Below the pieces are notes generated by a model that was not told the DNA's origin, did no database searches, and saw nothing but the letters and a program-made list of their open reading frames with translations. Both the position numbers and the translations under genes were made by a program. A DNA stretch of 64,000 nucleotides from Mobula hypostoma (taxonomy: Eukaryota), in contig NC_086097.1 of the NCBI RefSeq assembly GCF_963921235.1, forward strand, positions 152,894,001 to 152,958,000, written 5' to 3'. Shown one piece after another: positions 13,056-53,680 of the stretch; position 1 is the stretch's first letter; each line of letters begins with the position of its first letter.

Positions 13056-13331
13056 GAAAGCAGTGCTGTGACATTATCACATGCATATCTGTTGATGGAA
13101 AGTGTTGTGGTCTCCAGGGGTTTGCAAGTGGAAGTGACTGCACCAGTACTGTGATGCATGCTGTACACTCCAGTAACACCACATTTTTATCAGAATCACA
13201 ATTAGGTTTTTGTAAGCATATGTCATGAAACGTGAGCAACAGGAGTTCTGCAGATGCTGGAAATTCAAGCAACACACATCAAAGTTGCTGGTGAACGCAG
13301 CAGGCCAGGCAGCATCTGTAGGAAGAGGTAC

Positions 13332-13367
13332 AGTCGACGTTTCAGGCCGAGACCCTTCGTCAGGACT
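13332..13367 (-). ncRNA. Minimal type I hammerhead ribozyme motif (Penelope-associated)
   Basis: Minus strand reads AGTC-CTGACGA-AGGGTCTCGGCCT-GAAAC-GTC-GACT: CUGANGA and GAAA cores, stem I AGTC/GACT, stem II, and a short palindromic ACGT stem III. Confidence 0.75.
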
Positions 13368-15587: not shown

Positions 15588-15879
15588 GGCCCCACGTCCC
15601 CCTCGTACCCCATCTGTTACTTATTTTTATGCACACATTCTTTCTCTCACTCTCCTTTTTCTCCCTCTGTCCCTCTGAATATACCTCTTGCCCATCCTCT
15701 GGGTACCCCCCCCCGTCTTTCTTCCCGAACCTCCTGTCCCATGATCCTCTCGTATCCCCTTTTGCCAATCACCTGTCCAGCTCTTGGCTCTATCCCTCCC
15801 CCTCCTGTCTTCTCCTATCATTTTGGATCTCCCCCTCCCCCTCCAACTTTCAAATCCCTTACTCACTCTTCCTTCAGTT

Positions 15880-15915
15880 AGTCCTGACGAAGGGTCTCGG
15901 CCTGAAATGTCGACT
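15880..15915 (+). ncRNA. Minimal hammerhead ribozyme motif, second arm
   Basis: AGTC-CTGACGA-AGGGTCTCGGCCT-GAAATGTC-GACT; one C>T change in stem III. Confidence 0.65.
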
Positions 15916-16864
15916 GCACCTCTTCCTACAGATGCTGCCTGGCCTGCTGCGTTCACCAGCAACTTTGATGTGTGTTGTCATGAAACGTGTTAACTTTGTT
16001 ACAGCAGCATAATGTAATACATGATAAATATAGAAAAAACTGAATTACATTAAGTATATATATGTATATTAAATAATTAATTTAAGGTAAGTAGTGCAAA
16101 ACAGAAATTAAAAATAGTGAGGTTGTGTTCACGAGTTCAATACCCATTTAGAAATTGGATAGGAGAGTGGAAGAAGCTGTTCCTGAATTGCTGAGCATGT
16201 GCCTTCAGGCTTCTGTACCTCCTTCCTGATGGAAAGCACCAGAAATACAAGTGCTGATCAATCCAATTTCAGGTATAACTGTCTAGAATATAAAGGGCAG
16301 AAACATCTGTTATCAACCTACCCTTCATATCCACAGCTCATCTCAAAATTGTTTTTGAAAGAGTAGGTTCAGTTATATAGAAATAGTTATATAGAAAGTA
16401 CAAGGTGAAATCTATATCCTGCATGATTATAAAGGAGTTGGTGACTTGATGATCAGAGTTGCTTGAGGGAATGATTTTATTAGGACAGTGAGATGCTCTT
16501 CACTTTATTTAGTGTTGTCTTATGATCTTTAATATATGTCTGATTAGTAATCCATCCAAATCAAGATCAGTGCTCCTAATAAGTTGCATAAAATACAATG
16601 CTCTTTTCAACACTATATTAGCATATCAACCAAAGTTCCTGGTCATGTCCGTTAATTAACTCAAACTTTCTGCCATCATATGTAGTTACAAAATACATTT
16701 CCCCTTTACAGGTTGAAGGGCTCTGTTATAGTGCCCAATACTTCCTTCAATTTGAAAAACAATGAAGTGATTACATTATACAGGAGAAGGATGCTTGAAT
16801 AATTTGCTCTGTTATCAAAATGCTGAATTGTTCAGGATAACAATTATTACCTTGCTGGATTCAT

Positions 16865-19270: not shown

Positions 19271-19476
19271 CTTCCTGGGTTTATTTTTCTTCTGTGTTTC
19301 CCAAAAATCATGCTATAGTTGGAACTTAAATATTCCATTCATCAGTTCTTACTGTGTTGATTGATGCATGAATTGACAAACCAAACAAGAAGGAAAATGT
19401 AGAAGGATAAGGTACTTAAAATTTCTAAGAGAAAAAAGGATAATGTATATTTATTCTTAATGATAATAGCTGTAAG
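17032..19476 (+). repeat. 2,445-bp direct duplication, first copy
   Basis: Matches 23124-25568 at a constant offset of 6092; ORFs lying wholly within the two copies translate identically. Confidence 0.95.
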
Positions 19477-19628
19477 ACTTCCGGTAGCGCTCATGGAGTG
19501 AAGTCGCGTTCTTGACTCGCTCCATTACCTCTGAGTTTTTTCTCTCTATGGTCAGCTATACTTTAATTAACTATTAAGGCATCAATTTTTACAATACTTT
19601 GAATTAAACTGAATTCTCTGACAATTGG

Positions 19629-20528
19629 ATGGAACTTAGATCTGCTATGTCTAAGAACGGGAAAGACGGCAAGGATGGTAAACCTCCGGTTAAACCGAAA
19701 GCTACGGATCTCCCTCCGACTGAATCACCGGTGACTTTGGAAGCTATATCGGAGTTAATTCAGAGGGAAATTTCAACCTCTGTTAGGGAGATGATTCGTA
19801 CAGAAATTATGGGCTTTGTTAAAGACCTGATTCATATGGAAATCTCAACTAAGTTCCAGAAAATTGCCGATTTAATTGATAAGATGCAAACATGTATTGC
19901 GGAACATCAGTCGGCTATATCTGGTCTTCAAAAATCCGCGCAACAAAGTGAGCTTAAGATGGGGAAAGTCGAAGAAACAATTAATGTAATGAAGAAGAAA
20001 CTTGACTTTTTGACTTTTAAAAACTCTGACTTGGAATCTAGAATGCGACGGCAGAATTTACGAATGATTGGCGTCAGGGAAGCCGTGGAAGCTAACAACC
20101 CTATGAAATATTTCTCCCAACTTTTAAAAGATGCATTCCCTACTGTATTTCCTGACCAACCACCGCTACTGGATCGTGTTCACAGAATCCCATCATACTC
20201 GTCTAGGTCAGATAGACCTAGGCATGTTATCTTACGTTTTCATTACTTTCAAGATAAGGAGAGACTGTTTCGATTCGCTCGATCTAAAGGTTTCATTGAT
20301 TTTTCGGATCTTAAGTTCCGATTCGTGGAAGATTTCAGTAAACCAATCTGGGACCAACGGGTCCGTTACAGATCCGTGATGTCGGAATTCTATAAGATGG
20401 ATTTAAGACCAGCGCTGCTGTACCCTGCACGTCTAAGGATTCGCATGTTAGATGGAGCTCTTCGTTTTTTTGATTCTCCATCGGATGCCCAGAGTTATCT
20501 GGATCAACTTTCATCTTCAACATCTTAA
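19629..20528 (+). CDS. L1 ORF1p (coiled coil plus RRM/CTD, Transposase_22-like), 299 aa, uninterrupted
   Basis: DLESRMRRQNLRMIGVRE, LDRVHR, PRHVILRFHYFQDKE, FVEDFS and LLYPARLRI motifs. Confidence 0.9.
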   Translation: MELRSAMSKNGKDGKDGKPPVKPKATDLPPTESPVTLEAISELIQREISTSVREMIRTEIMGFVKDLIHMEISTKFQKIADLIDKMQTCIAEHQSAISGLQKSAQQSELKMGKVEETINVMKKKLDFLTFKNSDLESRMRRQNLRMIGVREAVEANNPMKYFSQLLKDAFPTVFPDQPPLLDRVHRIPSYSSRSDRPRHVILRFHYFQDKERLFRFARSKGFIDFSDLKFRFVEDFSKPIWDQRVRYRSVMSEFYKMDLRPALLYPARLRIRMLDGALRFFDSPSDAQSYLDQLSSSTS

Positions 20529-21248
20529 TTGCCTTTTTTTAATTTTCTCCGTTGATCGGAGGCTGTGAATTGGTTGGTTTTAACTTTTCTGTGCCCTATT
20601 TGGGCAGAAAAGTTTACTTTCGATTTCTTAATATGGCTGCTAAACTTTCTTTTTAACTGCGTCATTTCTTTCTTTTCCCAGGGGATTCTGGGTGGTTACT
20701 TCCCTTTTGTCATCTTACGTATTTCCTGTGCGGCCTTAAATTTTGTAGTTTTTTTTAAATTTTATTCTGTTTTGCTTTTTATAATCATTTTATGTTAATA
20801 ATCCTATTTTTTTTTGTTGCTGTGTCTATTCATGAGTTTGAGGTTTATTGTGGTTTTTTTTTAATATATACTTTCCGGCTTTTGTTCTGTTCTGTGTGTA
20901 TTTTAATTGAGCTAACTTTTTTTTACTTATTTTTTACTGTTTTACAATTAGCTGATCCTTTTCATATTTATACCTTTTTTTTAGGGAGCGTATACCGGAA
21001 GTCATGGGGGTAGTTTTAGCGCTTGCTTCTTTCTGGCGGGTCTGCTTTAGATTTCGCCTTGGGGTCCTGGGGTGGGGGGCGGTGGGAGGGGCTTCACGTT
21101 TTAGTTTGTTTCTCTTTGGGCTATATACATTATTGAAGTATTGGTTACGTCCTTTTCCCCGGTATCTTTTGTATGTTCTGTTTCCTCTCCGGGTCTGTGG
21201 GTCGCGCCTATTGTCAATCCTCCTTGTTATGGGTTGACTTTAGGATTT

Positions 21249-23123
21249 ATGGAGTCTATTATTAATTTTGTCTCCTGGAATACTAATGGTCTTAATCATC
21301 CTATTAAAAGGAAAAAAGTTTTTAAAGTGTTCCGGAGACTTAATGCACAAATTTTATTTTTACAAGAGACCCATGTACGGAGGGGGGACAGACTACGTTT
21401 TTTCAAATTTTGGAAGGGACAACAATTTCATTCGAACTCCAATGCTAAGATTCGAGGCGTCTCTATCTTTATAGACTCCTCAGTTACTTTTATACAACAG
21501 GATATTATCTCTGATCCGAATGGTAGATTTTTATTGGTTAGTGGTTTATTATTTAATAAAAAAGTAGTTTTGGTTAATGTTTATGCTCCTAATATGGATT
21601 GTCCGGAATTTTATAAATCATTGTTTGATCAGTTTCCGAATTTGAACGAGTTTTCATTGATTTGGGGCGGAGATCTTAATACCTGTTTATCTCCAGCTTT
21701 GGACCGTTCGGCTCCTTTACGGACTTTACCTAATAAATCTGCAAATTTGATTAATTTTTTCCTTTCTGATTCTGGGTCGACGGACATTTGGCGTTTTCTG
21801 CATCCTCAGGAAAAAGATTTTTCCTTCTTTTCACATGTTCATCATTCCTATTCAAGAATTGATTATTTTTTCATTGATTCTCGTCTCATTTCTTCAGTGA
21901 TTAAATGTGATTATGATTCTATAACCATTTCGGATCATGCTCCACTTAAGCTTTCTATTAAAATTATGGCCAATATACCAAACAATAGACAATGGCGTTT
22001 TAATTCGCTGTTGCTTCAGGACTCGGACTTTGTTAATTTTATGAATGAACAGATTGAGCTTTTTTTTACAATTAACCATACAGAAGATATTTCGGTTAAC
22101 ACTCTTTGGGACACTTTTAAAGCCTATATTCGGGGTCAGATTATTTCGTATTCCGTTGCTTTGAGGAAGAAACAGAAGCAGGAGGAGATGGTAATTGTGG
22201 ACAAGATTAAAGAAATTGATAAGAAATATGTTATGGCTCCTTCTGAGGAGCTATACAAACAAAGAACTGAACTTCAAATGGAACACAGTTTACTACTCTC
22301 GTCCTCGATTGTAAACCAATTAAAGAAAACAAGAAGTGATTTTTATGTTCACAGTGATAAAATTGGCAAGCTGCTGGCTAATCAATTGAAATCTAATTAT
22401 GTTAAATCTCAAATCAATCAGATTTATAACCAAAATGATCGATTGATATTGGATCATGTGGGGATTAATCAAACCTTTTGTGATTTTTATTCTTCTTTAT
22501 ACCAATCAGAGTCTCCTCGAGATTCTAAATATATGAATGATTTTTTAGATAAGTTAGACTTCCCTCTGATTTCACAGGATATGTCTTCTTTATTAGATAC
22601 TTCCATTACAATGGATGAGATTAAGAATGTTATTTTTTCTATGAATCTGGGGAAAGCTCCTGGCCCTGATGGGTTTACCGTTGAATTTTATAAATGTTTT
22701 GCTTCTTTATTGATTCCTTGGCTCTATAAGGTTTTTGAGGCTTCTTTGAAACTTGGTAAACTTCCGGAATCTTTTAATAGAGCATCAATTTCTTTAATAC
22801 TAAAGAAGGATAAAGACCCTGCTCAATGTGCATCTTATAGACCAATATCTTTATTAAATGTTGATTCTAAAGTTTTTTCTAAGTTATTAGCAAATAGACT
22901 AGAAAAAGTACTTCCTTCTATTATTTCGGAAGACCAAACGGGTTTTATTAAAGGTCGTTACTCTTTTTATAATATTCGTACATTGTTAAATATTGTTTAT
23001 ACTCCCTCACAAAATGTTCCTGAGTGTGTTATTTCTTTAGATGCCGAGAAAGCTTTTGATAGAGTAGAATGGCCTTATTTATTTAAGGTGCTTGAAATGT
23101 TTAATTTTAGCTTGAAATTTATA
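21249..23123 (+). CDS. L1 ORF2p N-terminal portion (APE endonuclease plus start of RT), open but truncated
   Basis: ATG at 21249; SWNTNGLN, LQETH, NVYAPN, GGDLN, SRIDYFF, SDHAP, KAPGPDGF, YRPISLLN, DQTGFIKGR and LDAEKAFD. Confidence 0.9.
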
Positions 23124-25568
23124 TCCTCTCTCCAATTCTAAGCTCATACCTTCTGAATGTTTTGCTCTCACTCCCTCTGCGCTAATCCTAAACTTACCAT
23201 CAAACCTGCAGATAAGGGGGGCACTGTAGTTATCTGGTGGACTGACCTCTACCTTGCTGAGGCTCAGCAACAACTGTCAGACACTTCTTCTTACATACCC
23301 CTCGAACATGATCCCACTAGGACGCAGCAAGCCATTGTCTCCCACATCATCACTGACCTTATTAGCTCTGGGGATCTGCATTCCACTGTCACCAACCTCA
23401 GTTCTTGCACCCCACACCTCTTGTCTCTACCTCCCACCGAAGGTCCACAATCCTACCTGCCCAGGTAGACCCAATGATTCAGCTTGTTCCTGCCCCACTG
23501 AACCCATCAGTATACCTTGACTCTGTTTTACCCCTCACTGGTTCAGTCTCTTCCTACCTACATCCATGACACCTCACATGCTTTGGATCTTTTCAATGAT
23601 TTCAAGTTCCCTGGCCCCATCATCTCATTTTCAATATGGATGTCCAGTCCCTGTACATCTCCATCCCCCAGCTGGAAGGCCTCAAAGATCTCCATTCCTT
23701 TCTGGACACCAGACCCAACCAGTTCCCCTCCTCCACCACCGCTCTTCTCCTTCTAGTGGAACTTGTCCTCACTCTCAATAATTTCTGCTTTGGCTCCTCC
23801 CACTCCCTTCAATCAAAGGTGTAGCCATGGGTACTCACATAGGTCTCAGCTATGCCTGCCTTTTTGTCGGCAGTGTAGAACAGTCTATGTTCCAAGTTTA
23901 CACTGGTGTCACTGCACCACTTTTCCTATGCTACAGCGATTACTGCATTATTGCTGATTCTTGCACCTATGCCGAGATTGTCAACTTCATCAACTTTGCC
24001 TCCAACTTCAACCCTGCCTTCAAATATACAAGGTCCATTTTTGAACACCTCCCTCCCCTTACTCAATCTCTCTGTTTCTGTCTCCAGAGACAGATTATCT
24101 GCTGATGTCTATTATAAACCCACTGATTTTCACAGCTACCTGGACTATACCTTTTCCCAACCTCTACTTGTAAAATTGTCATCTCCTTCTCTCAATTCCT
24201 CTGTCTCCACCACATCTGCTCTCAAGATGAGTCTTTACATTCCAGAAAGAAGGTGATGTATTTTTTCTTCAAAGAAAGTAACTTCCCTTCCTTCACCATC
24301 AACGCCACCTTCAGCTGCATCTCTTCCATTTCACACACATCTGCCCTCACCCCTCCTCCCGCCACCCCACCAGGGATAGGGTTCCACTTGTCCTCACCTA
24401 CCACCCCACAAGCCTCCGTGTCCAGCACATAAGTTTCCGTAACTTCCACTGTTGCCAACAGGATCCCACTATCAAGCGCATCTCCCCCCCTCCACCCCCC
24501 ACTTTCTGCTTTCCGCAGGGATCACTCCCTATGTGACTCCCTTGTCCATTCATCCCTCCCCACTGATCTTCCTCCTGGCACTTATCCTTGCAAGCAGAAC
24601 AAGTGCTACACCTGCTCCTACACCTCCTCCCTCAATGCCATTCAGGGCCCCAAACAGTCCTTTCAGGTGAGGCAACACTTCACCCGTGAGTCTGTTGGGG
24701 TTATCTACTCTATCTGGTGCCCCAGGTGTGGCCTCCAGTACATTGGTGAGACCCGACGTTGTTTGGGAGACCGATTTGCCAAGAACTTATGCTCCATTGC
24801 CAGAAAAAAATGGAATCTTTCAATGGCCACGTATTTTAATTCCACTTCCCATTCACATTCCAACATGTCAAACCATTGGTCTCCTCTACTGTCACAGTGA
24901 GGACACACTCAGGTTGGAGGAGCAACAGCTTATATTCTATCTGTATAGCCTCCAACCTGATGGCATGAACATCAATTTCTCAAACTTCTGTAACACCCCC
25001 ACCCCCCTTCACCATTCCCCATCTCTTTTCCCTCTTTTACCTTATCTCCTTGCCTCCCCATTGCCTCCCTCTGATGCTCCTCTCCCTTTTCTTTCTTCCA
25101 TAGCCTTCTGTCATCTCCTACTAGATTCCCCCTTCTCTCTTTCACCAATCAACTTCCCAACTTTTCACTTCAACCCATCCCTCCCTCCCAGTTTCATCTA
25201 TCACCCTGAGTTTCTCTCTTGTCTCCTCTCCACCTTCTAACTCTGACTCCTCATCTTTTTCTTCCAGTCCTGCTGAAGGGTCTCGGCCTGAATCATTGAC
25301 TGTACTCGTTTTCACTGATGCTGCCTGGCCTGCTGAGTTCCTGAAGCATTTTGTGTGTGTTCCTTCCTGGGTTTATTTTTCTTCTGTGTTTCCCAAAAAT
25401 CATGCTATAGTTGGAACTTAAATATTCCATTCATCAGTTCTTACTGTGTTGATTGATGCATGAATTGACAAACCAAACAAGAAGGAAAATGTAGAAGGAT
25501 AAGGTACTTAAAATTTCTAAGAGAAAAAAGGATAATGTATATTTATTCTTAATGATAATAGCTGTAAG
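23124..25568 (+). repeat. 2,445-bp direct duplication, second copy (Penelope remnant plus flank)
   Basis: Copy of 17032-19476; followed by non-L1 sequence (CTGACAGG) rather than the L1 5' end. Confidence 0.95.
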
Positions 25569-33060: not shown

Positions 33061-36000
33061 GAAACATAGAAACATAGAAAATAGGTGCAGGAGTAGGCTA
33101 TTCAGCCCTTCGAGCCTGCACCGCCATTTGTTATGATCATGGCTGATCATCCAACTCAGAACCCCGCCCCAGCCTTCCCTCCATACCCCCTGACCCCCGT
33201 AGCCACAAGGGCCATATCTAACTCCCTCTTAAACATAGCCAGTGAACTGGCCTCAACAGTTTGCTGTGGCAGAGAATTCCACAGATTCACCACTCTCTGT
33301 GTGAAGAAGTTTTTCCTAATCTCGGTCCTAAAAGGCTTCCCCTCTATCCTCAAACTGTGACCCCTCGTTCTGGACTTCCCCAACATCGGGAACAATCTTC
33401 CTGCATCTAGCCTGTCCAATCCCTTTAGGATCTTATACATTTCAATCAGATCCCCCCTCAATCTTCTAAATTCCAACGAGTACAAGCCCAATTCATCCAG
33501 TCTTTCTTCATATGAAAGTCCCGCCATCCCAGGAATCAATCTGGTGAACCTTCTTTGTACTCCCTCTATGGCAAAGATGTCTTTCCTCAGATTAGGGGAC
33601 CAAAACTGCACACAATACTCCAGGTGTGGTCTCACCAAGGCATTGTACAACTGCAGTAGTACGTCCCTGCTCCTGTACTCGAATCCTCTTGCTATAAATG
33701 CCAGCATACCATTCGCCTTTTTCACCGCCTGCTGTACCTGCATGCCCACTTTCAATGACTGGTGTATAATGACACCCAGGTCTCGTTGCACCTCCCCTTT
33801 TCCTAATCGGCCACCATTCAGATAATAATCTGTTTTCCTATTTTTGCCACCAAAGTGGATAACTTCACATTTATCCACATTAAATTGCATCTGCCATGAA
33901 TTTGCCCACTCACCCAACCTATCCAAGTCAGCCTGCATCCTCTTAGCATCCTCCTCACTGCTAACACTGCCACCCAGCTTCGTGTCATCCGCAAATTTGG
34001 AGATGCTGCATTTAATTCCCTCATCCAAGTCATTAATATATATTGTAAACAACTGGGGTCCCAGCATTGAGCCTTGCGGTACCCCACTAGTCACCGTCTG
34101 CCATTCTGAAAAGGTCCCGTTTATTCCCACTCTTTGCTTCCTGTCTGCTAACCAATTCTCCACCCACACCAATACCTTACCCCCAATACCGTGTGCTTTA
34201 AGTTTGCACACTAATCTCCTGTGTGGGACCTTGTCAAAAGCCTTTTGAAAATCCAGATATACCACATTCACTGGTTCTCCCCTATCCACTCTACTAGTTA
34301 CATCCTCAAAAAATTCTATGAGATTCGTCAGACATGATTTTCCTTTCACAAATCCATGCTGACTTTGTCCGATCATTTCACTGCTTTCCAAATGTGCTGT
34401 TATCACATCCTTGATAACTGACTCCAGCAGTTTCCCCACCACCGACGTTAGGCTAACCGGTCTATAATTCCCCGGTTTCTCTCTCCCTCCTTTTTTAAAA
34501 AGTGGGGTTACATTAGCCACCCTCCAATCCTCAGGAACTAGTCCAGAATCTAACGAGTTTTGAAAAATTATCACTAATGCATCCACTATTTCTTGGGCTA
34601 CTTCTTTAAGCACTCTAGGATGCAGACCATCTGGTCCTGGGGATTTATCTGCCTTCAATCCCTTCAATTTACCTAACACCACTTCCCTACTAACATGTAT
34701 TTCGCTCAGTTCCTCCATCCCACTGGACCCTCTGTCCCTTACTATTTCTGGAAGATTATTTATGTCCTCCTTAGTGAAGACAGAACCAAAGTAACTATTC
34801 AATTGGTCTGCCATGTCCTTGCTCCCCATAATCAATTCACCTGTTTCTGTCTGCAGGGGACCTACATTTGTCTTTACCAGTCTTTTCCTTTTTACATATC
34901 TATAAAAGCTTTTACAGTCTGTTTTTATGTTCCCTGCCAGTTTTCTCTCATAATCTTTTTTCCCCTTCCTAATTAAGCCCTTTGTCCTCCTCTGCTGAAC
35001 TCTGAATTTCTCCCAGTCCTCAGGTGAGCCACTTTCTCTGGCTAATTTGTATGCTTCTTCTTTGGAATTGATACTATCTCTAATTTCTCTTGTCAGCCAC
35101 GGGTGCACTACCTTCCTTGATTTATTCTTTTGCCAAACTGGGATGAACAATTGTTGTAGTTCATCCATGCAACCTTTAAATGCTTGCCATTGCATATCCA
35201 CCGTCAATCCTTTAAGTGTCATTTGCCAGTCTATCTTAGCTACTTCACGTCTCATACCTTCAAAGTTACCCCTCTTTACGTTCAGAACCTTTGTTTCTGA
35301 ATTAACTATGTCACTCTCCATCTTAGTGAAGAATTCCACCATATTATGGTCACTCTTACCCAAGGGGCCTTTCACGACAAGATCCCTAATTAACCCTTCC
35401 TCATTACTCAAAACCCAGTCTAGAATAGCCTGCTCTCTAGTTGGTTCCTCGACATGTTGGTTCAAAAAACCATCCCGCATACATTCCAAGAAATCCTCTT
35501 CCTCAGCACCTTTACCAATTTGGTTCACCCAGTCTACATGTAGATTGAAGTCACCCATTATAACTGCTGTTCCTTTATTGCACACGTTTCTAATTTCCTG
35601 TTTAATATCATCTCCGACCTCACTACTACTCTTAGGTGGCCTGTACACAACTCCCACCAGCGTCTTCTGCCCCTTGGTGTTACGCAGCTCTACCCATATC
35701 GATTCCACATCTTCCCGGCTTATGTCCTTCCTTTCTATTGCGTTAATCTCTTCTTTAACCAGCAACGCCACCCCACCTCCCCTTCCTTCATGTCTATCCC
35801 TCCTGAATATTGAATATCCCTGAACGTTGAGCTCCCATCCCTGGTCACCCTGGAGTCATGTCTCTGTGATCCCAACTATATCATAATCATTAATAACAAT
35901 CTGCACTTTCAATTCATCCACCTTATTACGAATGCTCCTTGCATTGACACATAAAGCCTTCAGGCGCTCTTTTACAACTCTCTTAGCCCTTATACAATTA

Positions 36001-36066: not shown

Positions 36067-37359
36067 TTAGTTATTGTAAATTGTTCCATGATTAGGCTAG
36101 GATTAAATCAGAGGATTGCTGGGCAGCATGGCTTGAAGGGCTGGAGGGCCCTATTCTGCACAGTATTTCAATAAGTGAATAAATAAGTAAGTAACTTATA
36201 GAAGCTGCACTTAAATGTATCTGCATTGCCCTTTGTGATGAATATTCACTGTCCAGGTTTGAGGGCCTTTTTGCCAAGCTTAGCTTTATAACACAACAGC
36301 AAATGGCATTTCTAGAGATTAAAGAGTTTTTTTTGAGTAAGTTAAACTTCAAACAATATTCTTTGTTCGACTTTATGTCATAAACGGGAGCCAGTCTTCA
36401 GTTCTTAATTTAAATGCAAGCAATAATCAGCCAGAAGCTAAAAGGACAGCTTTCCAAGCAAACAGCACTGTTTACGGAACACAGGATACTGGCCCACTGC
36501 ATGGGGATGATTGCAGTGTAAAACAATGTGTTTATGTTTATTGGGTTTGTTTGAAACCAGCCAATACTGGATACATTATTTAGCTCAAGAAAGCTTGCAG
36601 ACTAGATTGATACTACTACTTAGCAGATCAAATAGCTGATCTATTGATGGTTTAAAGGTTTGTGCGCTTAGGGAGTCAGTAATCACAGTATTAATTGTGG
36701 GTATCTGAGAAATCTGTACCCAAAAGCCTTTAGACCATCTGTAGGAAAAGGTAATTGAAAAGATACGCATGTCAGCAAAGTCACCCAAGTGGCAAAAAAT
36801 GGTATAAGTGTGAGAGAGCTATCAGGCTTGTTAGGAATGGTCTAGGAACATCAAGATGAATGACAGAAAGATGGGGCAAACTAGAATCTATTCCTCTGCC
36901 TTCAATTTCTGCGATGGATGACTCAGTCATCTGAAACTCAGTATGTCTTTTTAGCATAGGAATTGTATCTGTCTTTTGGAAACCCTATGTGCTTTAGAAA
37001 TTATCTGTAATTTGGATATCTTTTATAATATAGAAAACCTCTGAGTTTTAAGTTGTTGGCCAGAAAAAATGACAGTCTACAGATCAGTGAATTTAAATGA
37101 ATCAAGGACAGTGGAAGCAGACAGATAAGTTGTCTTTGTTCTTGCCTCATGCTTGGGGATGGAGGCTGCCATTTTGTGAAGACACTCTGTTCTCCTCTTT
37201 GTGAGCTTGACAGGCTGGGCTTGATCAACGTTTTAAAGAAAGACACATTGATACTTCAGGTAATCTGTTGGACTGGAGATCATTTCCAAATAAAAAGTTA
37301 TTTATGAGATGTTCTTTGGTTAGATATAACATGCAGGTTTGTGAATGTTGGGGTTGGTG

Positions 37360-38071
37360 GATTGGAGTGATGATAGCAATAGCGACTCCTTAGATAACAT
37401 GTTTGGAAACAGCTCTATTTCCATCTTTAATATCTTTATTTTTCCCTTTCAGGGTTTTTTGAAGACCCTGACCTGGAGTTACACCCTGACTATGGTTCTT
37501 TGCAGGAATGGGCACGGCCTAAGAGTCCAGCTCAGATTTGGAAGCCTAGGATCTTGGGGCTCTATAGACAGGCAGATCGAGGGTCGGTGTCATGACAGCT
37601 GACCCATGTGTCGTTGGGGGAGTTGGAATATCTGCAGTTGTGTGCCTAGTTTTTTGGGTACACAGCTCGAAAAAAGAGTTGTTAGTTATGTCTCCCCGCT
37701 TTCTGGGAAAATGGAGACAACTTTTTCTCTCTTATTAGGGAAACTGAGAAAACCTGTAGTATGTCAATTACCAGGTGAAAGGTGAAATCTTTGGGGCAAG
37801 TGCAAGTCTGTGTCTTTGCTGCTGCTTTGCTTGAGTACTTGGTGGCAGGTGCTGATGCTTTTCTTTTGCCGTTGGGAGAAGGGGGGATTGTTGCTTGTTG
37901 CCACTTACGCGTGGGAGGGGGAAGTTGGGGGGGTACTTTAGGGTTCAAACATTTGACTGTCGTTCATTCTTTGAGACACTCCCCTGTTTTCATGGATGGT
38001 TGTGAAGAAAAAGCATTTCAGGATGTATATTGTATAAATTTCTCTGACATTAAATTGTACCTTTGAAACTT
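37360..38071 (+). mobile_element. Short non-autonomous retroposon inserted in the 5' LTR
   Basis: Absent from the 3' LTR; 6-bp TSD TTGGTG (37354-37359, 38072-38077); ends ATTAAATTGTACCTTTGAAACTTT. Confidence 0.8.
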
Positions 38072-38492
38072 TTGGTGCCTGCCTGGAGTGATTCGACCTC
38101 ATTGCAGATTGAGAACAAAGAGCCATAAATTATCAGCTGTCACTTGATGGGAAGAGGGCAATAAATGGATGCTGGCTTGGGAGCAGAGACAGTAACAATG
38201 TGTTAGAGGACAGATGCATGACCTGTGACCAATAACCCTGGAATGCAATATTTGAATTGATAAGGAATGGATATAAAAGTGGATGCTTCGTGTGTACAGT
38301 GGAAACTTTGAGGAATAGCCATCACAGGTACGAGTGTGAGCAACCCTGTATCAAACACGTGGCAAATGAATGGGGTTAACTAGGAACGTCTGGCCAGCAT
38401 TAACTCCTTTGCCCAGGTAACATCTTTGCTATTCTTTGGCTATTCAGGAGAGTCAGGGATACCTCGTGAGTGTGCACGCAAGTTACTTCGTG

Positions 38493-38726
38493 GATGTCAG
38501 GCTTAAGTTTTTTACGCAGAGAGTGGTGAGTGTGTGGAATGGGCTGCCGCAACCGTGGTGGAGGTGGATACAATAGGGTCTTTTAAGAGACTCCTGGATA
38601 GGTACATAAAGCTTAGAAAAATAGCGGGCTATGGGTAACCCTAGGTAATTTCTAAAGTACGCACATGTTTGGCACAGCATTGTGGGCCAAAGTGCCTGTA
38701 TTGTGCTGTAGGTTTTCTGTGTTTCT
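38493..38726 (+). mobile_element. CR1 3' fragment inserted in the 5' LTR
   Basis: Closely matches 53457-53680; absent from the 3' LTR. Confidence 0.85.
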
Positions 38727-38847
38727 GTGTATGAATTCACACACTCGTTAGTTTAAACAATAAAGGTATCCTGTACTTGTCGGGAAATACAGATCTCTCT
38801 GTGCCTCACTAATCAGCGTTATAAAAAGTTCTTTTTAACAACAGAAT

Positions 38848-38865
38848 TGGCGTCCCTGTTGTGAG
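38848..38865 (+). promoter_or_regulatory. Primer binding site, tRNA-Asn-like
   Basis: TGGCGTCCCTG starts 4 nt after the 5' LTR and is complementary to the 3' end of vertebrate tRNA-Asn(GTT) (...CAGGGACGCCA); the rest is diverged. Confidence 0.7.
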
Positions 38866-38912
38866 CTCAATCGGGGGACTGGGTAGCTACTTGTAGTTAG
38901 CACTGACCCAGG

Positions 38913-40346
38913 TTGAAGAATTCAGGGAGTTCTGTAAGTCTGAAGTACTTGGATTATTTTGATTGGAGGGGATTCCTCCAGAAGTACATATTGGGGAAAT
39001 GGCCACAATACGGGAAGTATGTTGGACACACCAGCGATGAAGGCGGCAACGCTTTTTTAAAAATTGCCAAAGGGAAATTGTCAGACAAGGAATTTAAGCG
39101 ACTACTGAAGCCAGTGCAGTCGTCTGCCTGATTAAGGAGTAAATAGGAAATCGGCAAAAAGCTGACGCCGAGCGAGATAAGTTAGAAGACGAAAACAGAA
39201 GACTCCAAAAGGAGTTAGAAATCCTCAAGGGAAATGTTACAGATTTACAGGGACAAAGAAGTATGGATTTGATGCCTATGAATCTATTTCAGCTGAAATG
39301 TGAGAAATTGGTTGAAGAACAAAGTAAACGGGAAGAAGAAGCTGATTTAGCCAAAAGCCCGGCGGAGGAATAAAAGAAACAGTGCAGTGATTTAAAAACA
39401 GCTTTGAATGTGATACAGAAATCAGTTTCTGAAAAGAGGAGTAATACTAGTGATCAGACAAAGTGTTTAAAGCAGATACAACAGCTGCAGGACCAACTTG
39501 CTGCACAGAGAGGAATAATATGTGCTTTTGAATCTGAAAGAGGGGAGGAGAGTGAATATGTAGATATCGATTGGAATGATTTAGCAGAAGATGCAACTAG
39601 ATATGGCTGTGATAATGACAAAGTGCTTTTTCCTGAGTATCCTCCACCCGCATACAATGCTAAGGAATCATCAGTGCCAACGGCACCACTGGCCCTCCTA
39701 GTTACTGTTTGAGAGGGAGGGAGGAACTGGGGCAGGAAATCAAAAGCAGAATATAACATACAGTACTCCATCTGGTGTACAGCAGCTGAGAGATATTGCC
39801 AATGATATCAAGATTCGTGCGTTCGGAGATGACCCTCGGGAATTGTTTCAAGCAACTAGTCATCAGAGAATAATACACTGCCTAGATGACGCCGAGAAAA
39901 GGAAATTGATTATAATGTGTTTATATCGAAACATACACTTGGCTTTGCCAGACAACAACAATGTGGGGAACAAATGAGCATGGGAAAAGGAGACATAACA
40001 GCCAAATAAACCAGCTAATGTGAAAGTGCTGCCTGTTGTGGGTAAGGCAACTGCCCGGAGAAATGAGAGTAGCGGACCCTCCCCAAATGTCACCCCACCA
40101 CATTGTCAAGTGACCAGGAAAACCAGAGGAGATGAAACAGTGTGGAGAACAGGGAGACTTGGAGGTGGAGTATTTAAATGCTATAACTGTGGTCAAGAGG
40201 GACACATCAAGAGAGAATGTCCAAACCTGAGAAGTGGGAGAGTAGAGCAAGGAGGTTTGAACTTGGAGGGGGCAGATAGAACAGGCCCACAAAACAATGT
40301 GGTGGACAAATTGCCATCTAGGGGATTGTACCCCGAGCTTCAATGA
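38913..40346 (+). pseudogene. gag: gag (frameshifted; capsid region apparently partly deleted)
   Basis: Coiled-coil stretch, PEYPPPAY late-domain-like motif, and CCHC knuckle CYNCGQEGHIKREC. Confidence 0.75.
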
Positions 40347-43300
40347 TGGTGTCAGGCCTCACCAACGTGGGTGTGTGACACAAGGTGGGACAAGACTGGA
40401 AGACCTCTAGTGAATGGTAGGGTTAAAGGCTGCCAGGTTACCTTCTTATGGGGCACTGGAGGATCGTGAATGACCATCAACTTGACTAATGTAACTAACG
40501 CAAATTGGGAAATACAAGGTAAAATTATCTTAAGTGCATTTACAGGACATTCACAAGTGGGTCATGTGAATGCACCCTTAGAAGTTAGAATAGGAGACAT
40601 GGCATTAGAGCATTCTATAGTGCTAGTTGAATTACTCCGGGAGCAGGAACATATACTAAGAATTGATTACATGGCCAGAGCGGGGCTTTGTTTTGACTCA
40701 GTTAACTGTATGATTTAGTGAATGTGAACTGGTATGAATGACATATGCCACAAACAGATCCCAGTAGGTGAATATCAGGATAGAATATGCACAATAGCTG
40801 AAATGTGAATAAAACCAGAGGAGATGAGCAACGATCACACATAGAGTACATCGTTGCGCAGAATTCAGGGGCATTTGCACGGTACAAGCATGACTGCAGA
40901 AAGATGGCCAGCATCATACAAGGTCCAGACCCAAACCACAGGAGCAATATGGGTTTCCAAAAAAGCTGAGGAAGATGTGCGTAAGGTAATACAAGGTTTG
41001 ATACAACATGGGGTACAGAGGACAGTAGCCTCCACTAATAACTCACCTATATGGCCAGTAAGGAAACCAGATGGTAGTTGGAGGTTGACAATAGACTATC
41101 GAGAGCTGAATAAAGTAAACCCGTTAACAGCCCCAACTGTAGCAACTAACCCAGAAACAATGGTCATACAGAATGAAAGAGCGCAATGGTTCACAGTTTT
41201 AGACATAAATAATGGATTTTGGTCTATCCTAGAGAAAGAGAGAGTCAATCAAGTTTGCATTTACGTTTCGGGGAGAGCAGTATATGCGGACTGCCCTAGC
41301 ACAGGGGTTCCATAAATTCCCATCTATGTTTCACCAGCATTTAGGGGAAGGGTTAAAATGGTTTTTAAAGCCTGAGTGCTTGGTCCAATATGTAGATGCA
41401 GACTGCAGACTCCTGCAGACTGAAACTAAGCAGGAACATTATCAGCTATTGACAGAACTGCTGCAATTACTACCTAAAGGTAAATCCTAAAAAAACACAA
41501 GTGATGAAACAAGGAGTTAGTTATTTGGGAATGACCTTGACACAGGGAAGAAGAGAAATTGAAAAACGAAGGGTAGAATCGGTTATGAAACTGCCTATTT
41601 CCCAAGATGTGAAAGGGCTGAAGTCCTTTCTGAGGTTGGTAGGATACAGTAGGGATCACATTGATGGATTTTACACAAAGGCAGTTCCTTTAATGGAGTT
41701 ACTGAAAAAGATTGTGGCGTGGGAATGGAAATCAGAACACACCCAGCCATCACAGACCTGAAGCAAGCATTGGTCACTGCACATGCTTTAAAAACCCCAA
41801 ATTCAAATGAGCCATTCTCATTGGAGGTGGCCACAACTGATACCATCCTCTCAACAATGCTGTCACAGGAGACACATGGAATGTTAAGACCAGTAGCATA
41901 TGCTTCACGCATGCTGCCACCAGTAGAACAGGTGTATACTGTGTGTGAAAAACACTTGTTAGCGGTTTTCTGGGTGTACAAAATTTTGCCTACATAATGG
42001 GATTTAATCCACTTACAATACTGACAGAATGTACCCCTATAAGATTATTGTTAGATGGAAGGATTAAAGATGGCTCAGTAAGCCAAAAAACAGAATTGCT
42101 AGATGAACATTGCTGTTGCAAGGGAGAAATATAACTGTAAAACAAATGAGTATGACCTCTATGTTAGCTGACAGCCTGGTGTACCAAAATGGTAAACTTG
42201 AGTGTCAGGTTATGATAGCAAATGATTCCAAGGGACCATTTGTATCTAAACAAAAAGGAGGGGATAGAAGCAGATGAGACAAAGTAATGCTTGAGAACAA
42301 AGACACAAAGGAGAAGGGAAAACCCTATTTTAAAATTTTTGTAGATGGCTCCTCATCAGTATAGAGGAGACTGGAATATAGAGGAAGAACATGGCCAAGA
42401 AAGATATAGTATAGCTTTAAAGTTACCTAAAGCCATGAGTGCACAGGTAGCGGAATTGGCAGCTGTAGCATACGTGATTAGCCACCCAAAATGTTTTCCA
42501 CCTGGATGGGTCATACACTCTGATAGTATGTTCATTTATAATAGCCTTACAGAACATTGGCCTCTGTGGGAAGCCAGAGGATTTGTTGACCGAAAGCCCC
42601 ACTCATCTGTTGTTCTGTTGAGATATGTATTTGAAGAAGCAAAGGGGAAAAAATATGGAGTTGTAAAGGTGAAAGCCCACTCTAAATCGACCCCTAAGGG
42701 GAATAGGAAGGCTGATGAATTAGCGAAGCAAGGTACTTTAAAAGGGCAGGAAAGGCAGCCACAGATTGGGGAGAAGGGAAGACAGAAGGAAAAAAAGGTT
42801 AAGGTCATAGATTTAACTGAGGAGCAGAAGAAAGATAAAGAATTAGAAAAAAAATAATAGAAGGAGTAGAGTCAAAAATGTATAAAGAGCACAAGGGTAT
42901 ATGTGTTAAAGATGGAGTAGTCCTATATGAAGGAAAGTTTGTGGTCCCAGAAGGAGGAAGAAATCAGATTATCTACTGATACCATGATTTATGGGGACAC
43001 CAAGAAGCTGAAAGCACCCTAGAAAAAATAAAGGAGGTGTGTTGGTGGCCTAGGGTGAAGGACGATGTGGAACATTATGTCAAGAATTGTTTGATTTGTG
43101 CACAATATAATCCTGACAGAAAGGTAAAGAAAGGAGCCCTTCAACATACCAGACTGGTGGAAGGGTCTTGGACTAATTTGCAGAGCGATTATGTTGGACT
43201 CTTGCCACCTACCCCAGGAGGGTATAGCTATATTCTTATAGTAGTAGATACTTTCACCAAGTGGGTGGAAGCTTTTCCAACTAAGACTAACACGGCCAAA

Positions 43301-43990
43301 GCCACTGCAAAAATCTTATTGGAAAGGACTTTTACTGGCTGGGGATTACCTCAGAGTATAGAGTCAGATCAAAGCACACATTTTACAGCTCAGATAATGC
43401 AAGATGTCATAACACTTTTAGGGATTAAGCAGAGATTTCATATACCCTATAGACCACAGTCTAGTGGAATTGTGGAAAGGATGAACCGAATATTAAAAAA
43501 TTTTGATGGCCAAAATGGTGCAACAACATGGAACAACTTGGCAAGTAGTTTTGCCTTATGTACTGATGATGATAAGGAATACAGTGGCATCATTAACGGG
43601 TTATAGTCCTCATAAGCTCATGACCGGAAGAAACATGAGAGGGTTAGAGGGGTTGTTTGGATTTGACTTGTCAGAACCTGAAATTGATGGGATTAAGTCA
43701 GAAAAGTGGGTACAACAGTTGGTAGAGACAGTGAAAGAGGTCAATTATGTGGCAGCCCATCAAACAGGAAAGAAGAAGCAGCAGATTAAAGCCTACTTTG
43801 ACTCAAAAGTCTGTCCCACAGAATTAAGCCCAGGGCAACGTGGTGATTAGAATACACCAACCCACCTCATTTTGAAATCCAAGGTTTGTAGGGCCCTATG
43901 AAATCATAGACAAAGCAAGTCCATCAGTATACAGGGTACTAATTTCTCCAGATAAAAATGGATGGTACCACGTCAACCAGTTGAAATTGG
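40347..43990 (+). pseudogene. pol: pol: protease, RT, tether RNase H, second RNase H, integrase with GPY/F tail
   Basis: FLWGTGG (DTG>GTG); NSPIWPVRKPDGSWRLTIDYRELNK; LAQGFH; LVQYVD; RPVAYASRML..CEKHLLAV; FVDGS..SAQVAELAAV..HSDS..KVKAH..GNRKADELAK; CLIC..DYVGLLP..VDTFTKWVEAFP..SDQSTHF..PQSSGIVERMN; FVGPYEI. Confidence 0.92.
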
Positions 43991-44404
43991 TGGGGGAGAA
44001 ACAGGGAAATTATCATCATCGGCACGAAACAGTTGATGTGCATGATAGTCCCAATTTTGGAGACCTGACAATCGATGTAGTTCTGATTTGGAAGATCTGA
44101 GTTTGGGACAGATTTTCCGAGAAGATGGCAACAGATCTGACCAAGGAAGAGATTATCCATTTTCTCAGTCTGAAAATTAGGTGAGTTTTGTGAAGAAAAT
44201 AAAGAGAAGAAGAAATACACTGGTTCCCCTATCCTGAAATGAAACTGGGTGAGAAAAGATGGAGGTTTGAGTCCAAAGACAATCGTGAGCCTAGATTGGA
44301 TGGGTTAGAAAAACAGATAGAAAATATGGATTTAAAGTAAATGAAGATTGGAACCGGAAATAAGAACAGATATTACCCTTGTGTGTTTACAGATTTAATT
44401 CAAC

Positions 44405-46050
44405 ATGAAGAGAATAATATGTTTTATTGTGGTGAAATTGACCATGACTGGGGCCATGATTGGTTGTACTTCAGCAACATTACTGCAGATGAACATGTCA
44501 AGAATGACTTTGCTATATGAAGACCACTCGGTGATCAAAAACAATTTTTCTCAATGGACACAGGTAACATGGGCACACATGTGGAAGAAACAGAAGACTC
44601 GAATTTGTATTATGCTGGGGTAGATGGCTTGATGTGTATGGATAAAACATTAAAATTCGAGAGGATACAAAGGTACAATTCCCATGTAATAAAATTTTAA
44701 AGGTGACATTGTTTAGTAACCCAGAGGGGATAATCATCAGTCAGTTTTTAGACCCAATTATTGAAGAGTCTTCAGGTGATGATGGCCACAGTAAGATTCC
44801 AGTTCTGTGGGATCACACTCATGTGAATATTGAGTGGGGTAGTGATGTACACAAGAGATATATCAATTGGTGTGGCCACATCAAACGTTTCTCAAAAGTT
44901 GTTTCTATTGTTATAAACTGTCCACAGGAGGATGTAGTACACAGGGAGAGTAGAATGGAAGGGACACCAAGGGACACGGGAAAGAGTTTCTGTCAGGACC
45001 TAAATCCTTTCAGGGTTTTCAAATCTAATAGGAAATTGATCACTCCACAACCCCAATTAACCAAAACTACACAAGAGCCTAAATGAAGTGAGACTCAACA
45101 TAATACAAATGAGATAGGATTAGTGTTAGAAGATACAGGGGAATTTGTCACTTTGGTACCAGCATGTGCAGGTAATTTTTAATTTAACTGAAACAATAGT
45201 GACTGAATGGTGCTCATCTACAACAAAACAATTATTGTCGTCGAGGGGGAAACTACTGATCTTGCCCAGAAGAAATGACGAGACAGAAACCTTTGGATTG
45301 TGGTTTCAATACTTATGAGAGTTGTTCGTTGTCTATTTTGCCTGCGAAGAATGATTCTTTTCTGCATATGCACTGGTGAGAAGAACATATTATATAGCAA
45401 CATCAGCCATGAGTTATACCAAGGGATGGAAAGAGTGTCCTTTGGAAAGTCACAATGTTGCAATTGGGGATGTGACTCTAAATTTGACTATTGGAGGAAA
45501 CTTTGCCTCAATCAGAGATGGAGGAGGTGGTGAAGGAGAATCTAGCAATCCAATGAAGTGGTACACATTGATATTTGTGGGACTGTGTTGTTACTGAGTT
45601 GCCACCGATTGCTCATTTGACTGCAGACCAGACACGAGTTGTGGAGGAGGTAAAGGAGATAATTCATCATTGGACTAAACATACAAAAGTTATTGAGACA
45701 CATGCTGATAAGGCAAATTAAATATTGAAGGATTCAGACTTTCGGGAAGTTTTGAAATTGGGCATCAAATGTTCAAATATACCCATGGGTAAGAATAATC
45801 TCACATGCTGCTATAATATTAATTTTACATACACTGATAACTATATTGTTTAATGTGTATCAACTTAGAAGGTGGAAAGCTGAAATTATGCAAAAGGTAG
45901 AGGGTGATAATTTTCCAGTACTGAAAAAATGATGGCTGGTATAAAAATTGTATAAATTTAGTAAGTAAATGTAATAATGTAAGTGTAGCCCACCTGCTGG
46001 GGATCCATAACAATCCAATGGATAGTCAACAGAATAGAGGAGGATATTGA
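44405..46050 (+). pseudogene. env: env-like glycoprotein gene remnant
   Basis: Hydrophobic N-terminus (MKRIICFIVV), IGLVLEDTGE, Cys-rich CPEE..DCGFNTYESC, a heptad-like stretch, then YPWVRIISHAAIILILHTLITILF followed by RRWK (TM and stop-transfer). Splice-acceptor-like TGTGTTTACAG near 44381-44391. Confidence 0.6.
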
Positions 46051-46074
46051 TCCTTAGAAAAATATCTTTGGATC

Positions 46075-46085
46075 AAGAGGAGGGA
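46075..46085 (+). promoter_or_regulatory. Polypurine tract
   Basis: AAGAGGAGGGA just upstream of the 3' LTR start. Confidence 0.8.
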
Positions 46086-46087
46086 TA

Positions 46088-46917
46088 TGTTGGCCAGAAA
46101 GAATGACAATCTACAAATCTGTGAATTTAAATGAATCAAGGACAGTGAAAGCAGACAGACTAATTGTCTTTGTTCTTGCCGTGCACTTGGGGATGGAGGC
46201 TGCCATTTTGTGAAGTCAGTCTATTCTCCATCTTGTGCGCCTGACATGCTGGGCTTGATCAACGTTTTAAAGAAAGACACAATGATACTTCAGGTAATCT
46301 GTTGGACTGGAGATCATTTCCAAATGAGAAGTTATTTGTGAAATGTTCTTTGGTTGGATATAATATGCAGGTTTGTGAATGTTGGGGTCAGTGCCTGCCT
46401 GGAGTGTTTTGAGCTCGTTGCTGATTGAGAACAAAGGGCCATAAATTATCGACTGTCACTTGATGGGAAGAGGGCAATAAATGGATGCTGACTTGGAGCA
46501 GAGCCAATAACAAGGTGTTAAAGGGCAAATACGTGACCTGTGGCCAATGACGCTGGAATGCGATATTTGAACTGATAAGGAATGGATATAAAAGTGGATG
46601 TTTCGTGTATGCTGGCAGTGGTAACTTCGAAGAATAACCATCACAGATACAAGCGTGAGCAACCCAGCATGAAACACATGACGAGTGAATCGGAATAATG
46701 AGGAAAGCCTGGCCAGAGTAAACTCCTTTGCCCAGGTAATACCTTTTCTATTCTTTGACCATTCAGGAGAGTCAGGGATACCTAATGAGTGTGCACACAA
46801 GGTATTGAGTGTATGAATTCATGTACTTGTTAGTTTAACTAATAAAAGGTGCTTGTCAGTAAATACAGATCTCTCTATGCCTTACTAATCATCAATAAAA
46901 AGTATTGTTTTACAACA
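46088..46917 (+). repeat. 3' LTR (830 bp)
   Basis: TGTTGGCCAGAAA...TACAACA; TATAAAA near 46587 and AATAAA near 46841. Confidence 0.92.
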
Positions 46918-47309
46918 GAGTATTTCATCTAAATTTAAATGTGTATCACTCAAAATAAATTAACTGCGTTTGCAGTTGTTTGTTCGCTAGAAGTATCTCC
47001 TCCTTGGTAAACTTGCCATGGAGGATAAACAGGGAAGTGATCTGGCCTTTGAAGAGTAGGTGGCTACAGTATAACCTCCTTTTAGTGAGAGTACCTATAA
47101 CTATCTGAATCAGAGAGGGCTTAAAATCTTCACTTGAGTTTAGAACTTCAAGGCAGCAAACCCAATATAATCACAACAGGAAATTAAGCTTATTGAGATT
47201 GCAATGATGTAACAATTAAATTTTAAACAGTACATTAAACAATAGTCTCAGAACTCCACTGACCTGAGTTTGATCCTGACCTGGGTATAGACTATGTGAA
47301 GTTTACAAA

Positions 47310-52275: not shown

Positions 52276-53680
52276 AGATACTTCAGTGGTTGGTAAATTG
52301 ATGGAGATACTTCAGTGATTTGTAAGTTGATGGAGATAATTCAGTGATTGGTATATTGATGAAGAAGATCCTGAGAGGCAGGATTTATGAACATTTGGAG
52401 AGGCATAATATGATTAGGAATAATCAGCATGGCTTTGCCAAAAGCAGGTCGCACCTTACAAGCCTGATTGAATTTTTTGACAATGTGACTAAACACATTG
52501 ATGAAGGTAGAGCAGTAGATGTAGTATATATGGATTTCAGCAAGGCATTTGATAAGGTACCCCATGCAAGGCTTATTGAGAAAGTAAGGAGGCATGGGAT
52601 CCAAGGGGACGTAGCTTTGTGGATCCAGAACTGGCTTGCCCACAGAAGGCAAAAAGTGGTTGTAGAGTTGTAGACAGGTCATATTTTGCGTGGAGGTTGG
52701 TGACCAGTGGTGTGCCTCAGGGATCTGTTCTGGGACCCCCACTCTTCATGATTTTTATTAATGACCTGATTGAGGAAGTGGAGGGATGGGTTAGTAAATT
52801 TGCTGATGACACAAAGGTTGGAGATGTTGTGGATAGTGTGGAGGGCTGTCAGAGGTTACAGCAAGACATCAATAGGATGCAAAACCGGGCTGAGAAGTGG
52901 CTGATGGAGTTCAATCCAGATAAGTGTGAAGTGGTTCATTTTGATAGGTCAAATATGATGGCAGAATATAGTATTAATGGTAAGACTCTGGGCAGTGTAG
53001 AAGATTAGAGGAATCTTGGGTTCGAGTCCATAGGACACTCAAAGATGCTGCGCAGGTTGACTATGTGATTAAGCAGGCATATGGTGCATTGGCCTTAATC
53101 AATTGTGGGATTGAATTTAGGAGCTGGGAGGTAATGTTACAGCTATATAGGACCCTGGTCAGACCCCACTTTAAGTACTGTTCACAGTTCTGGTCACCTC
53201 ATTACAGGAAGGACGTGGAAACCATAGAAATGTGCAGAGGAGATTTACAAGGATGTTGCCTGGATTGGGGGGCATGCCTTATGAGAATAGGTTGAGTGAA
53301 CGTGGCCTTTTCTCCTTGGAGCGACGGAGGATGAGAGGTGACCTGATAGAGATGTATAAGATTTACACGATCAATGGTCAGAGGCTTTTTCCCAGGGCTG
53401 AAATGCCTAACATGAAAGGACACAGTTTTAAGGTGCTTGGAAGTAGGTACAGTGGAGATGTCAGGGGTAAGTTTTTTACGCAGAGAGTGGTGAGTACACG
53501 GAATGGGCTGCCGGTAGTGGTGGTGGATGCGGATACGATAGGGTCTTTTAAGAGACTCCTGAATAGGTAAAAGGAGGGCTCTGGGTAACCCTTGGTAATT
53601 TCTAAAGCAAGGACATGTTAGGCACAGCTTTGTGGGCCGAAAGGCCTATATTGAGCTGTAGGTTTTCTATGTTTCTATGT
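52276..53680 (+). mobile_element. 5'-truncated CR1 LINE (RT region), second subfamily
   Basis: QHGFAK, YMDFSKAFDKVPH, GVPQGSVLGP, KFADDTK; TTCTATGTTTCTATGT tail. Confidence 0.92.

Follow-up and report, generated by a model that had tools for sequence, protein, structure and literature searches.

Does the provirus at positions 37054-46917 of a 64,000-nucleotide stretch of contig NC_086097.1 (hereafter the window) represent a lokiretrovirus of a cartilaginous fish, or does it belong elsewhere among the retroviruses? An initial annotation of the window had read the element as full-length and lokiretrovirus-like, proposing either an undescribed chondrichthyan loki lineage or another deep-branching retrovirus. 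It is the latter option that holds: the element is very probably an ancient, inactive provirus from an endogenous retrovirus (ERV) family with many copies, related to Snakehead retrovirus (SnRV), belonging to the class III-like clade Huo and to the lineage of Rh_ty_ERV2, and fixed in a ray. Taken alone, this provirus is one more decayed copy of a shark and ray ERV lineage catalogued in 2018; the envelope of its family matters more, both for its likeness to the envelope (Env) of lokiretroviruses and for a candidate host gene found elsewhere in the genome.

We assembled 217 proteins bearing a reverse transcriptase (RT), 150 of which covered ≥72%, and dropped 14 redundant feline foamy rows; a FastTree run with 142 rows was followed by an IQ-TREE RT tree of 62 hand-picked rows, in which the lokiretrovirus (Loki) rows were those that agreed with the Dataset S1 text of PMC7947760. 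We found that Loki formed a separate clade (100/99), and that the window family lay on the canonical side (98/88), inside a clade of 17 rows (96/91) that also holds frog and coelacanth proteins and unnamed ones. The tree of RT plus tether (53 rows, 391 columns) split Loki and Gypsy from the rest (100/99), a quick tree under a mixture model recovered the same split (SH-aLRT 98), and approximately unbiased (AU) tests rejected a grouping of the family with Loki (p 0.0415 for RT; p 0.0003 for RT plus tether), the constraint being the family and Loki alone, not Loki with the whole SnRV-like group. Feline foamy virus grouped with a foamy-like protein of Callorhinchus in a clade apart from the window family (98/93, 100/100), and the Gypsy outgroup split off at 100/99-100 in all trees.

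Reference sequences from the literature were set against the family by visual inspection alone, outside the trees. Two tree neighbours of the family, P0057 and P0023, resemble the RTs of ca_mi_ERV1 and xe_tr_ERV2, which lie near SnRV in clade Huo (PMC6001957 supplement). The closest published element is Rh_ty_ERV2 of the whale shark, assigned to clade Huo in 2018 (Xu et al., PMC6001957); in the S2 figure of that paper it adjoins SnRV, as far as tip order tells with branches not visible. Over the first 400 letters of the Rh_ty_ERV2 DNA and protein, to which the comparison extends, the two elements, one from the whale shark and the other from a presumed ray, are collinear through the Gag coiled region, capsid, single CCHC knuckle, gag-pro junction and protease start, with 42/66 residues the same in the N-terminal part of the capsid. 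An SnRV-related lineage has also been reported in the elephant shark (CmiERV lineage I; Han 2015, PMC4422223), and SnRV itself is described as having one zinc knuckle and read-through expression (PMC2717909, PMC1224870, PMC13517186). The window family shares with SnRV and CmiERV lineage I the one zinc knuckle, the Gag coiled coil, a presumed read-through of a gag stop and the RT clade; the SnRV stop is UAG and that of the window family TGA, and neither the accessory open reading frames (ORFs) nor the long Env tail given for SnRV is seen in the window family. What places the family in clade Huo is its RT grouping (by proxies), Gag homology to Rh_ty_ERV2, one knuckle and a one-frame gag-pol with a stop. 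The lineage was therefore not undescribed, having been published from the whale shark (PMC6001957), and the family nests in a class III, SnRV-related group; these are the two outcomes that the initial annotation had named beforehand as speaking against its loki proposal.

Several points weigh against the SnRV-related placement. Support for the wider SnRV-like group falls from 96/91 (RT) to 92/89 (RT plus tether), the position of foamy viruses differs between these two trees, and class II retroviruses and Odin are absent from them. The trees hold no named SnRV sequence, although one unnamed row, P0059, may be SnRV. The family carries a primer-binding site (PBS) for tRNA-Asn, and SnRV one for tRNA-Arg. 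An Asn PBS is known in some foamy-like viruses, among them foamy-like endogenous retroviruses (FLERVs) of newts (PMC5512871). Finally, the tree of Xu et al. puts some lamprey and fish elements that were later classed as Loki in the same part of clade Huo (PMC6001957), so that the border with Loki is sensitive to the model.

With this border in mind, could the family be a true chondrichthyan lokiretrovirus, or could Loki be a long branch arising within the SnRV-like group, so that the two would belong together? We consider this very unlikely, even though the resemblance is substantial: with Loki (PMC7947760) the family shares an F-like Env with a polybasic cleavage site, dual RNase H, an in-frame gag-pol and perhaps a CGIN1/NYNRIN-like integrase, its Env is homologous to the Loki Env by the sequence comparisons given below, and the placement by Xu et al. 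points the same way. The best integrase relatives of the family carry the name 'NYNRIN-like', the Loki integrase is reported to be nearest to CGIN1/NYNRIN (PMC7947760), and in our integrase tree (58 of the 73 rows covering the domain, with near-duplicates dropped and CGIN1 and NYNRIN not included) four Loki rows fell among the relatives of the SnRV-like group (90/85 with coelacanth rows, unstarred), the key nodes being weak; the integrase is thus probably Loki-like. The dual RNase H is not diagnostic, since every retrovirus has a tether plus RNase H (PMC7947760). Against membership, which the AU tests largely refute, the family lacks Loki RT motifs such as PLSRWPM and CPFGYSNSPAEF, its RT is not of the Loki clade, its PBS sequence is different, its protease region is short, its Env has ~200 extra N-terminal residues, and its Gag carries a CCHC knuckle, which neither of the two Loki Gags fetched possesses (0/2). 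A Loki Pol query against this genome gave 44 scored matches, the best of them at no more than 38% identity (a stricter first look, hence a floor), and Wang and Han report 0/6 chondrichthyan genomes as positive (PMC7947760). One Pfam scan of the family gave no SMC match, and no test was aimed at the smc-like gene that some Loki members carry. The proposed loki lineage is therefore contradicted by the trees, the AU tests and the knuckle, and what survives of the likeness is the Env and, probably, the integrase, not the RT. As a separate observation, many integrases of the SnRV-like group are automatically named NYNRIN-like; with the tree position of the Loki integrases this hints, at weak support, that the CGIN1/NYNRIN-type integrase originated in this group.

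A foamy-like ERV of cartilaginous fish, of the CmiFLERV or CFEFV kind, seems just as improbable to us. For RT, RNase H and integrase alike, the top matches in the Protein Data Bank (PDB) are foamy-virus proteins (the best solved relatives of the window RNase H being foamy-virus RNase H), but the PDB contains no identifiable SnRV-group protein and foamy viruses may be nearest by default. The F-like fold of the foamy Env (PMC11468914), a foamy Env chain at rank 8 of the PDB fold search with our weak Env model, and the Asn PBS, as in the newt FLERVs cited above, are likenesses to foamy viruses and fish FLERVs; these, however, form a separate RT clade, have a spliced pol and accessory genes and lack a knuckle, whereas the window family has a CCHC knuckle and an in-frame gag-pol stop, neither of them a foamy trait, and the interval from env to the long terminal repeat (LTR) in the window copy is too short for an accessory ORF. 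To an env-bearing Ty3/Gypsy retrotransposon we assign next to no probability: the GPY tail matches Gypsy-type domains and the second to fourth Env matches in the ESM Atlas are Gypsy and baculovirus F clusters, but GPY/F is found in retroviruses too, the presence of a tether and a second RNase H contrasts with the single RNase H of Metaviridae, and the RT trees refute a Gypsy RT. We therefore retain the SnRV-related, Rh_ty_ERV2-like family as the reading of the element.

The Env of this family is, judged by sequence comparison, homologous to the lokiretrovirus Env. Comparison Envs and Gags came from three Loki contigs of metagenome collections (L050, L051, L052). A Loki Env matched the family Env at 23% over 245 aa in BLASTP (E 9e-7) and was aligned with it by HHalign too (94.6%, E 7e-8), Smith-Waterman comparisons gave z 13.7-17.7, each of three queries outscoring all of its 300 shuffles, and a family Env profile run on Loki six-frame translations found both Loki Envs (E 7e-10 and 7e-8), the next match lying at E 0.67. 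The Loki Env aligned by BLASTP itself matches PF00523 (E 1e-5), so that through this homology, and by the cleavage site of its sister copies, the family as a whole has the Env similar to Mononegavirales F with an RXKR-type site that characterises Loki, the site itself being deleted in the window copy. As an aside, gag and pol are long open frames in the Loki elements of the three contigs, whose sequence is probably fish host DNA, and their Gag is without CCHC.

The env remnant of the window copy, assigned to an F-type class I fusogen family by comparison with sister copies, spans 44380..45930 (+, start approximate; all stranded features of the element given below are likewise on the + strand). 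A gap at 45236 of ~720 nt (707-723 nt against three sister copies) has removed the cleavage site, fusion peptide and first heptad repeat, a membrane anchor is left near 45790-45860, and the remnant has no Pfam match. In the sister copies, a polybasic site is followed by a hydrophobic peptide and a heptad repeat in 3/3 read. An ESM Atlas search with the family Env placed a Fusion glycoprotein F0 cluster first (0.94; PF00523 in 47% of cluster members), with matches 2-4 at 0.93-0.94, and the same search with full P0240 gave a score <0.9 and a template-modelling (TM) score <0.5. Two results count against the F-type assignment: searches of the family Env against Pfam and PDB sequences found no fusion-protein family and no direct PF00523 match, and the predicted folds are of low confidence (pLDDT, the per-residue confidence measure, of 33 from a single sequence and 38 from a 10-row alignment). 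Foldseek searches with the pLDDT-38 fold offer weak leads only, with metapneumovirus F and foamy Env at ranks 1-9 in the PDB (E 0.009-0.13, TM ~0.1) and two F0 proteins at the top of BFVD (E 7e-4 and 2e-3, TM ~0.1).

This homology runs counter to a published statement. Wang and Han described the Loki Env as without overall similarity to retroviral Env and, on this basis, argued for separate origins (PMC7947760, PMC9040795); the case for independent env gain in Loki and in canonical retroviruses, as worded in PMC9040795, rests on a lack of likeness between the Loki Env and any Env of canonical retroviruses. The window family is Loki-like at its env end and a canonical retrovirus at its RT end, and the Env likeness fits shared ancestry and recombination alike. 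Together with the F-like Env of foamy viruses, the homology favours one ancestral F-type fusogen, with gamma- and beta-type Envs taking its place later. We regard as an evenly balanced proposition that Loki, foamy and SnRV-like viruses descend from an ancestor with an F-type fusogen, or else that Loki took its env (and integrase) from the SnRV-related group, and that, in addition, one F-type env was domesticated in rays. Neither the Env link nor the ray env gene was found in print in a limited open-access search, which is weak evidence; Repbase/Dfam and the co-option survey of Wang and Han (2020) may already list the family or the gene.

That ray gene came from an Env protein search which returned three proteins among 2517 candidates, a Hypanus protein (745 aa, 47%) and two Heterodontus fragments. 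A genome search with the Hypanus protein gave 77 matches, the sole near-full-length and stop-free one being at G000:C2:126459298-126461511 (L045:1492-3714), an env of 741 codons from a sister subfamily that is 92% identical to the query. Hypanus sabinus and Hemitrygon akajei each have a 745-aa protein that matches this env at 92-93% identity, and Hypanus has a second, partial copy of 319 aa; the nearest paralogs of the env share 70-88% DNA identity with it. The provirus around it is decayed, with the integrase in several frames and an LTR Kimura two-parameter (K2P) distance of 0.196 (317 sites). Changes specific to this env comprise 12 synonymous and 10 non-synonymous ones (pN/pS 0.23, a value that also takes in the part of the branch when the virus was still replicating), the corresponding counts in two decayed paralogs being 5/29 plus two stops and 13/28 plus one stop (299 codons, Fisher p 0.009). 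A neutral simulation without indels left the frame stop-free in 0/2000 runs at d 0.10 and in 24/2000 at d 0.05. A splice-acceptor-like site lies at the start of the frame, and four putative RNA contig runs covered almost none of it; for pol no RNA source was listed, and neither result is evidence either way.

An open frame under purifying selection within a decayed provirus is what domestication would leave, and on these sequence grounds we propose the L045 env as a candidate domesticated F-type envelope that looks kept by the host. Syncytins and percomORF are likewise single open env frames in decayed proviruses, conserved across species, and rays are live-bearing animals. The domesticated envs in the passages of one review are gamma-type and the present candidate is F-type; if true, the host would have captured an envelope whose fold type lies outside those reviewed cases, and it would be a syncytin-like candidate in a live-bearing lineage.

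How might the ancestor of the family have worked? We propose a functional simple retrovirus, on the basis of an anatomy that comprises tRNA-Asn priming, a polypurine tract (PPT), a 4-bp target-site duplication (TSD), one Gag knuckle, a tether plus RNase H and a GPY integrase. By analogy with SnRV, ribosomes would have read through the in-frame stop of gag to yield Pol. A spliced Env, a Loki Env homologue with an additional N-terminal surface domain, would have been cut at the polybasic site, exposing the fusion peptide as in paramyxovirus and pneumovirus F. After integration the copies would have decayed neutrally, many of them being left as solo LTRs.

The present element extends over 37054-46917, and its LTR pair is bounded by TG...CA and shares three blocks (90, 84 and 78% identity). 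The 5' LTR (37054..38843) consists of ~830 nt of LTR and two later insertions to which no strand was assigned. Insertion 1 (~37355..38074) is an unrelated high-copy host repeat with 7696 first-look candidates in a genome search, the scored ones being 71-84% identical. Insertion 2 (38493..38730) is a host-repeat fragment, 81% identical to window 53457-53680, that also matches insertions in sister copies and that we take to be probably a CR1-type long interspersed element (LINE) 3' end. The PBS (38848..38866) is complementary to the 3' end of host tRNA-Asn (12/18 ungapped in the window; 17/18 by eye in sister copy L023), and the host genes behind this match were called tRNA-Asn at 4/4 loci; an Rfam search of the window gave zero matches. 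A PPT of 11 purines (46075..46085) precedes the 3' LTR of 830 nt (46088..46917). The flanks AAGT (37050..37053) and GAGT (46918..46921) form a 4-bp TSD with one mismatch, and sister LTRs also have 4-bp TSDs.

Within these boundaries every gene is broken. The gag (38910..40346), recognised by Pfam, homology to the Rh_ty_ERV2 Gag and sister copies, has a charged, helical and, by eye, coiled-coil-like N-terminal part, a capsid gap near 39977 of ~300 nt (295-304 nt short of three sister copies) and a single CCHC knuckle at ~40176-40226 (zf-CCHC E 6e-9 in Pfam). An in-frame TGA separates gag from pro in the window copy and in 4/5 readable sister copies (eight examined). A decayed protease in the frame of the gag end (40347..40720) was located by tblastn of P0002, a query without relatives in the viral contig collection; window searches gave no Pfam match for it, and its catalytic motif is decayed. 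The RT core (40950..41540) is spread over three frames as pieces of Pfam RVT_1, and its catalytic motifs have decayed as well. It is followed by the tether, a degenerate first RNase H (41746..42083; RT_RNaseH_2, PF17919 E 5e-18), the RNase H (42330..42746; Pfam RNase_H E 4e-13) and a frameshifted integrase (42980..44000) with HHCC, core and GPY-type C-terminal domains (Pfam Integrase_H2C2 and rve), the GPY lying at ~43891-43899 (SH3_Tf2-1 E 8e-6 and Integrase_p58_C E 2e-5, both under cut-off). In all, pol is in at least eight pieces in differing frames, with stops. The window copy is unable to produce any of the products proposed for its ancestor. The initial annotation was right about the LTRs, PBS, PPT, CCHC Gag, two RNase H domains (one being the tether) and GPY-tailed integrase, and the RT motif that it quoted is present; 'full-length' does not describe an element whose gag is short of ~300 nt and its env of ~720 nt, and whose 5' LTR carries two insertions.

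A search with the LTR of this genome, which runs to 3.48 Gb over 200 contigs, gave 2806 first-look candidates, 40 of which were scored at 85-89% identity (self excluded), and we also compared the window copy with 15 integrase-bearing loci of the same genome. The count and identities from the LTR search point to a family of considerable age and high copy number, many of whose copies are solo LTRs; at seven other LTR loci, 0/7 had internal sequence within 1.5 kb, and their TSDs were exact 4-bp ones in three, with one mismatch in three and two mismatches in one. The two LTRs of the window copy differ by a K2P of 0.146 (831 sites), which corresponds to 33 million years at a rate of 2.2e-9, 104 million years at 7e-10 and 332 million years at 2.2e-10, none of these rates being established for this host. 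The host is, from sequence likeness, most likely a ray because the sister-subfamily env is 92-93% like the Hypanus sabinus and Hemitrygon akajei proteins and the nearest integrase relative is a catshark protein (60%); the earlier suggestion of a cartilaginous-fish host is borne out by these stingray and catshark matches. At G000 C9:199.4-200.8 Mb, several equal-score integrase matches ~24 kb apart suggest a tandem segmental duplication carrying a family fragment.

The window also holds other elements. A 2445-bp direct repeat (17032-19476 and 23124-25568, 100% identical) flanks an L1-type element (ORF1 19608-20525, part of ORF2 21105-23138), and is either an artefact of the assembly or a duplication of very recent date associated with the L1 insertion. 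An inverted pair of ~1.1 kb with 97% identity (13270-14399 and 14849-15977) lies inside a Penelope-like element, which matches GIY-YIG weakly. Lastly, 33159-35855 (-) encodes an 899-codon endonuclease-RT frame of a non-LTR retrotransposon, which we take for a young LINE copy because the frame is stop-free.

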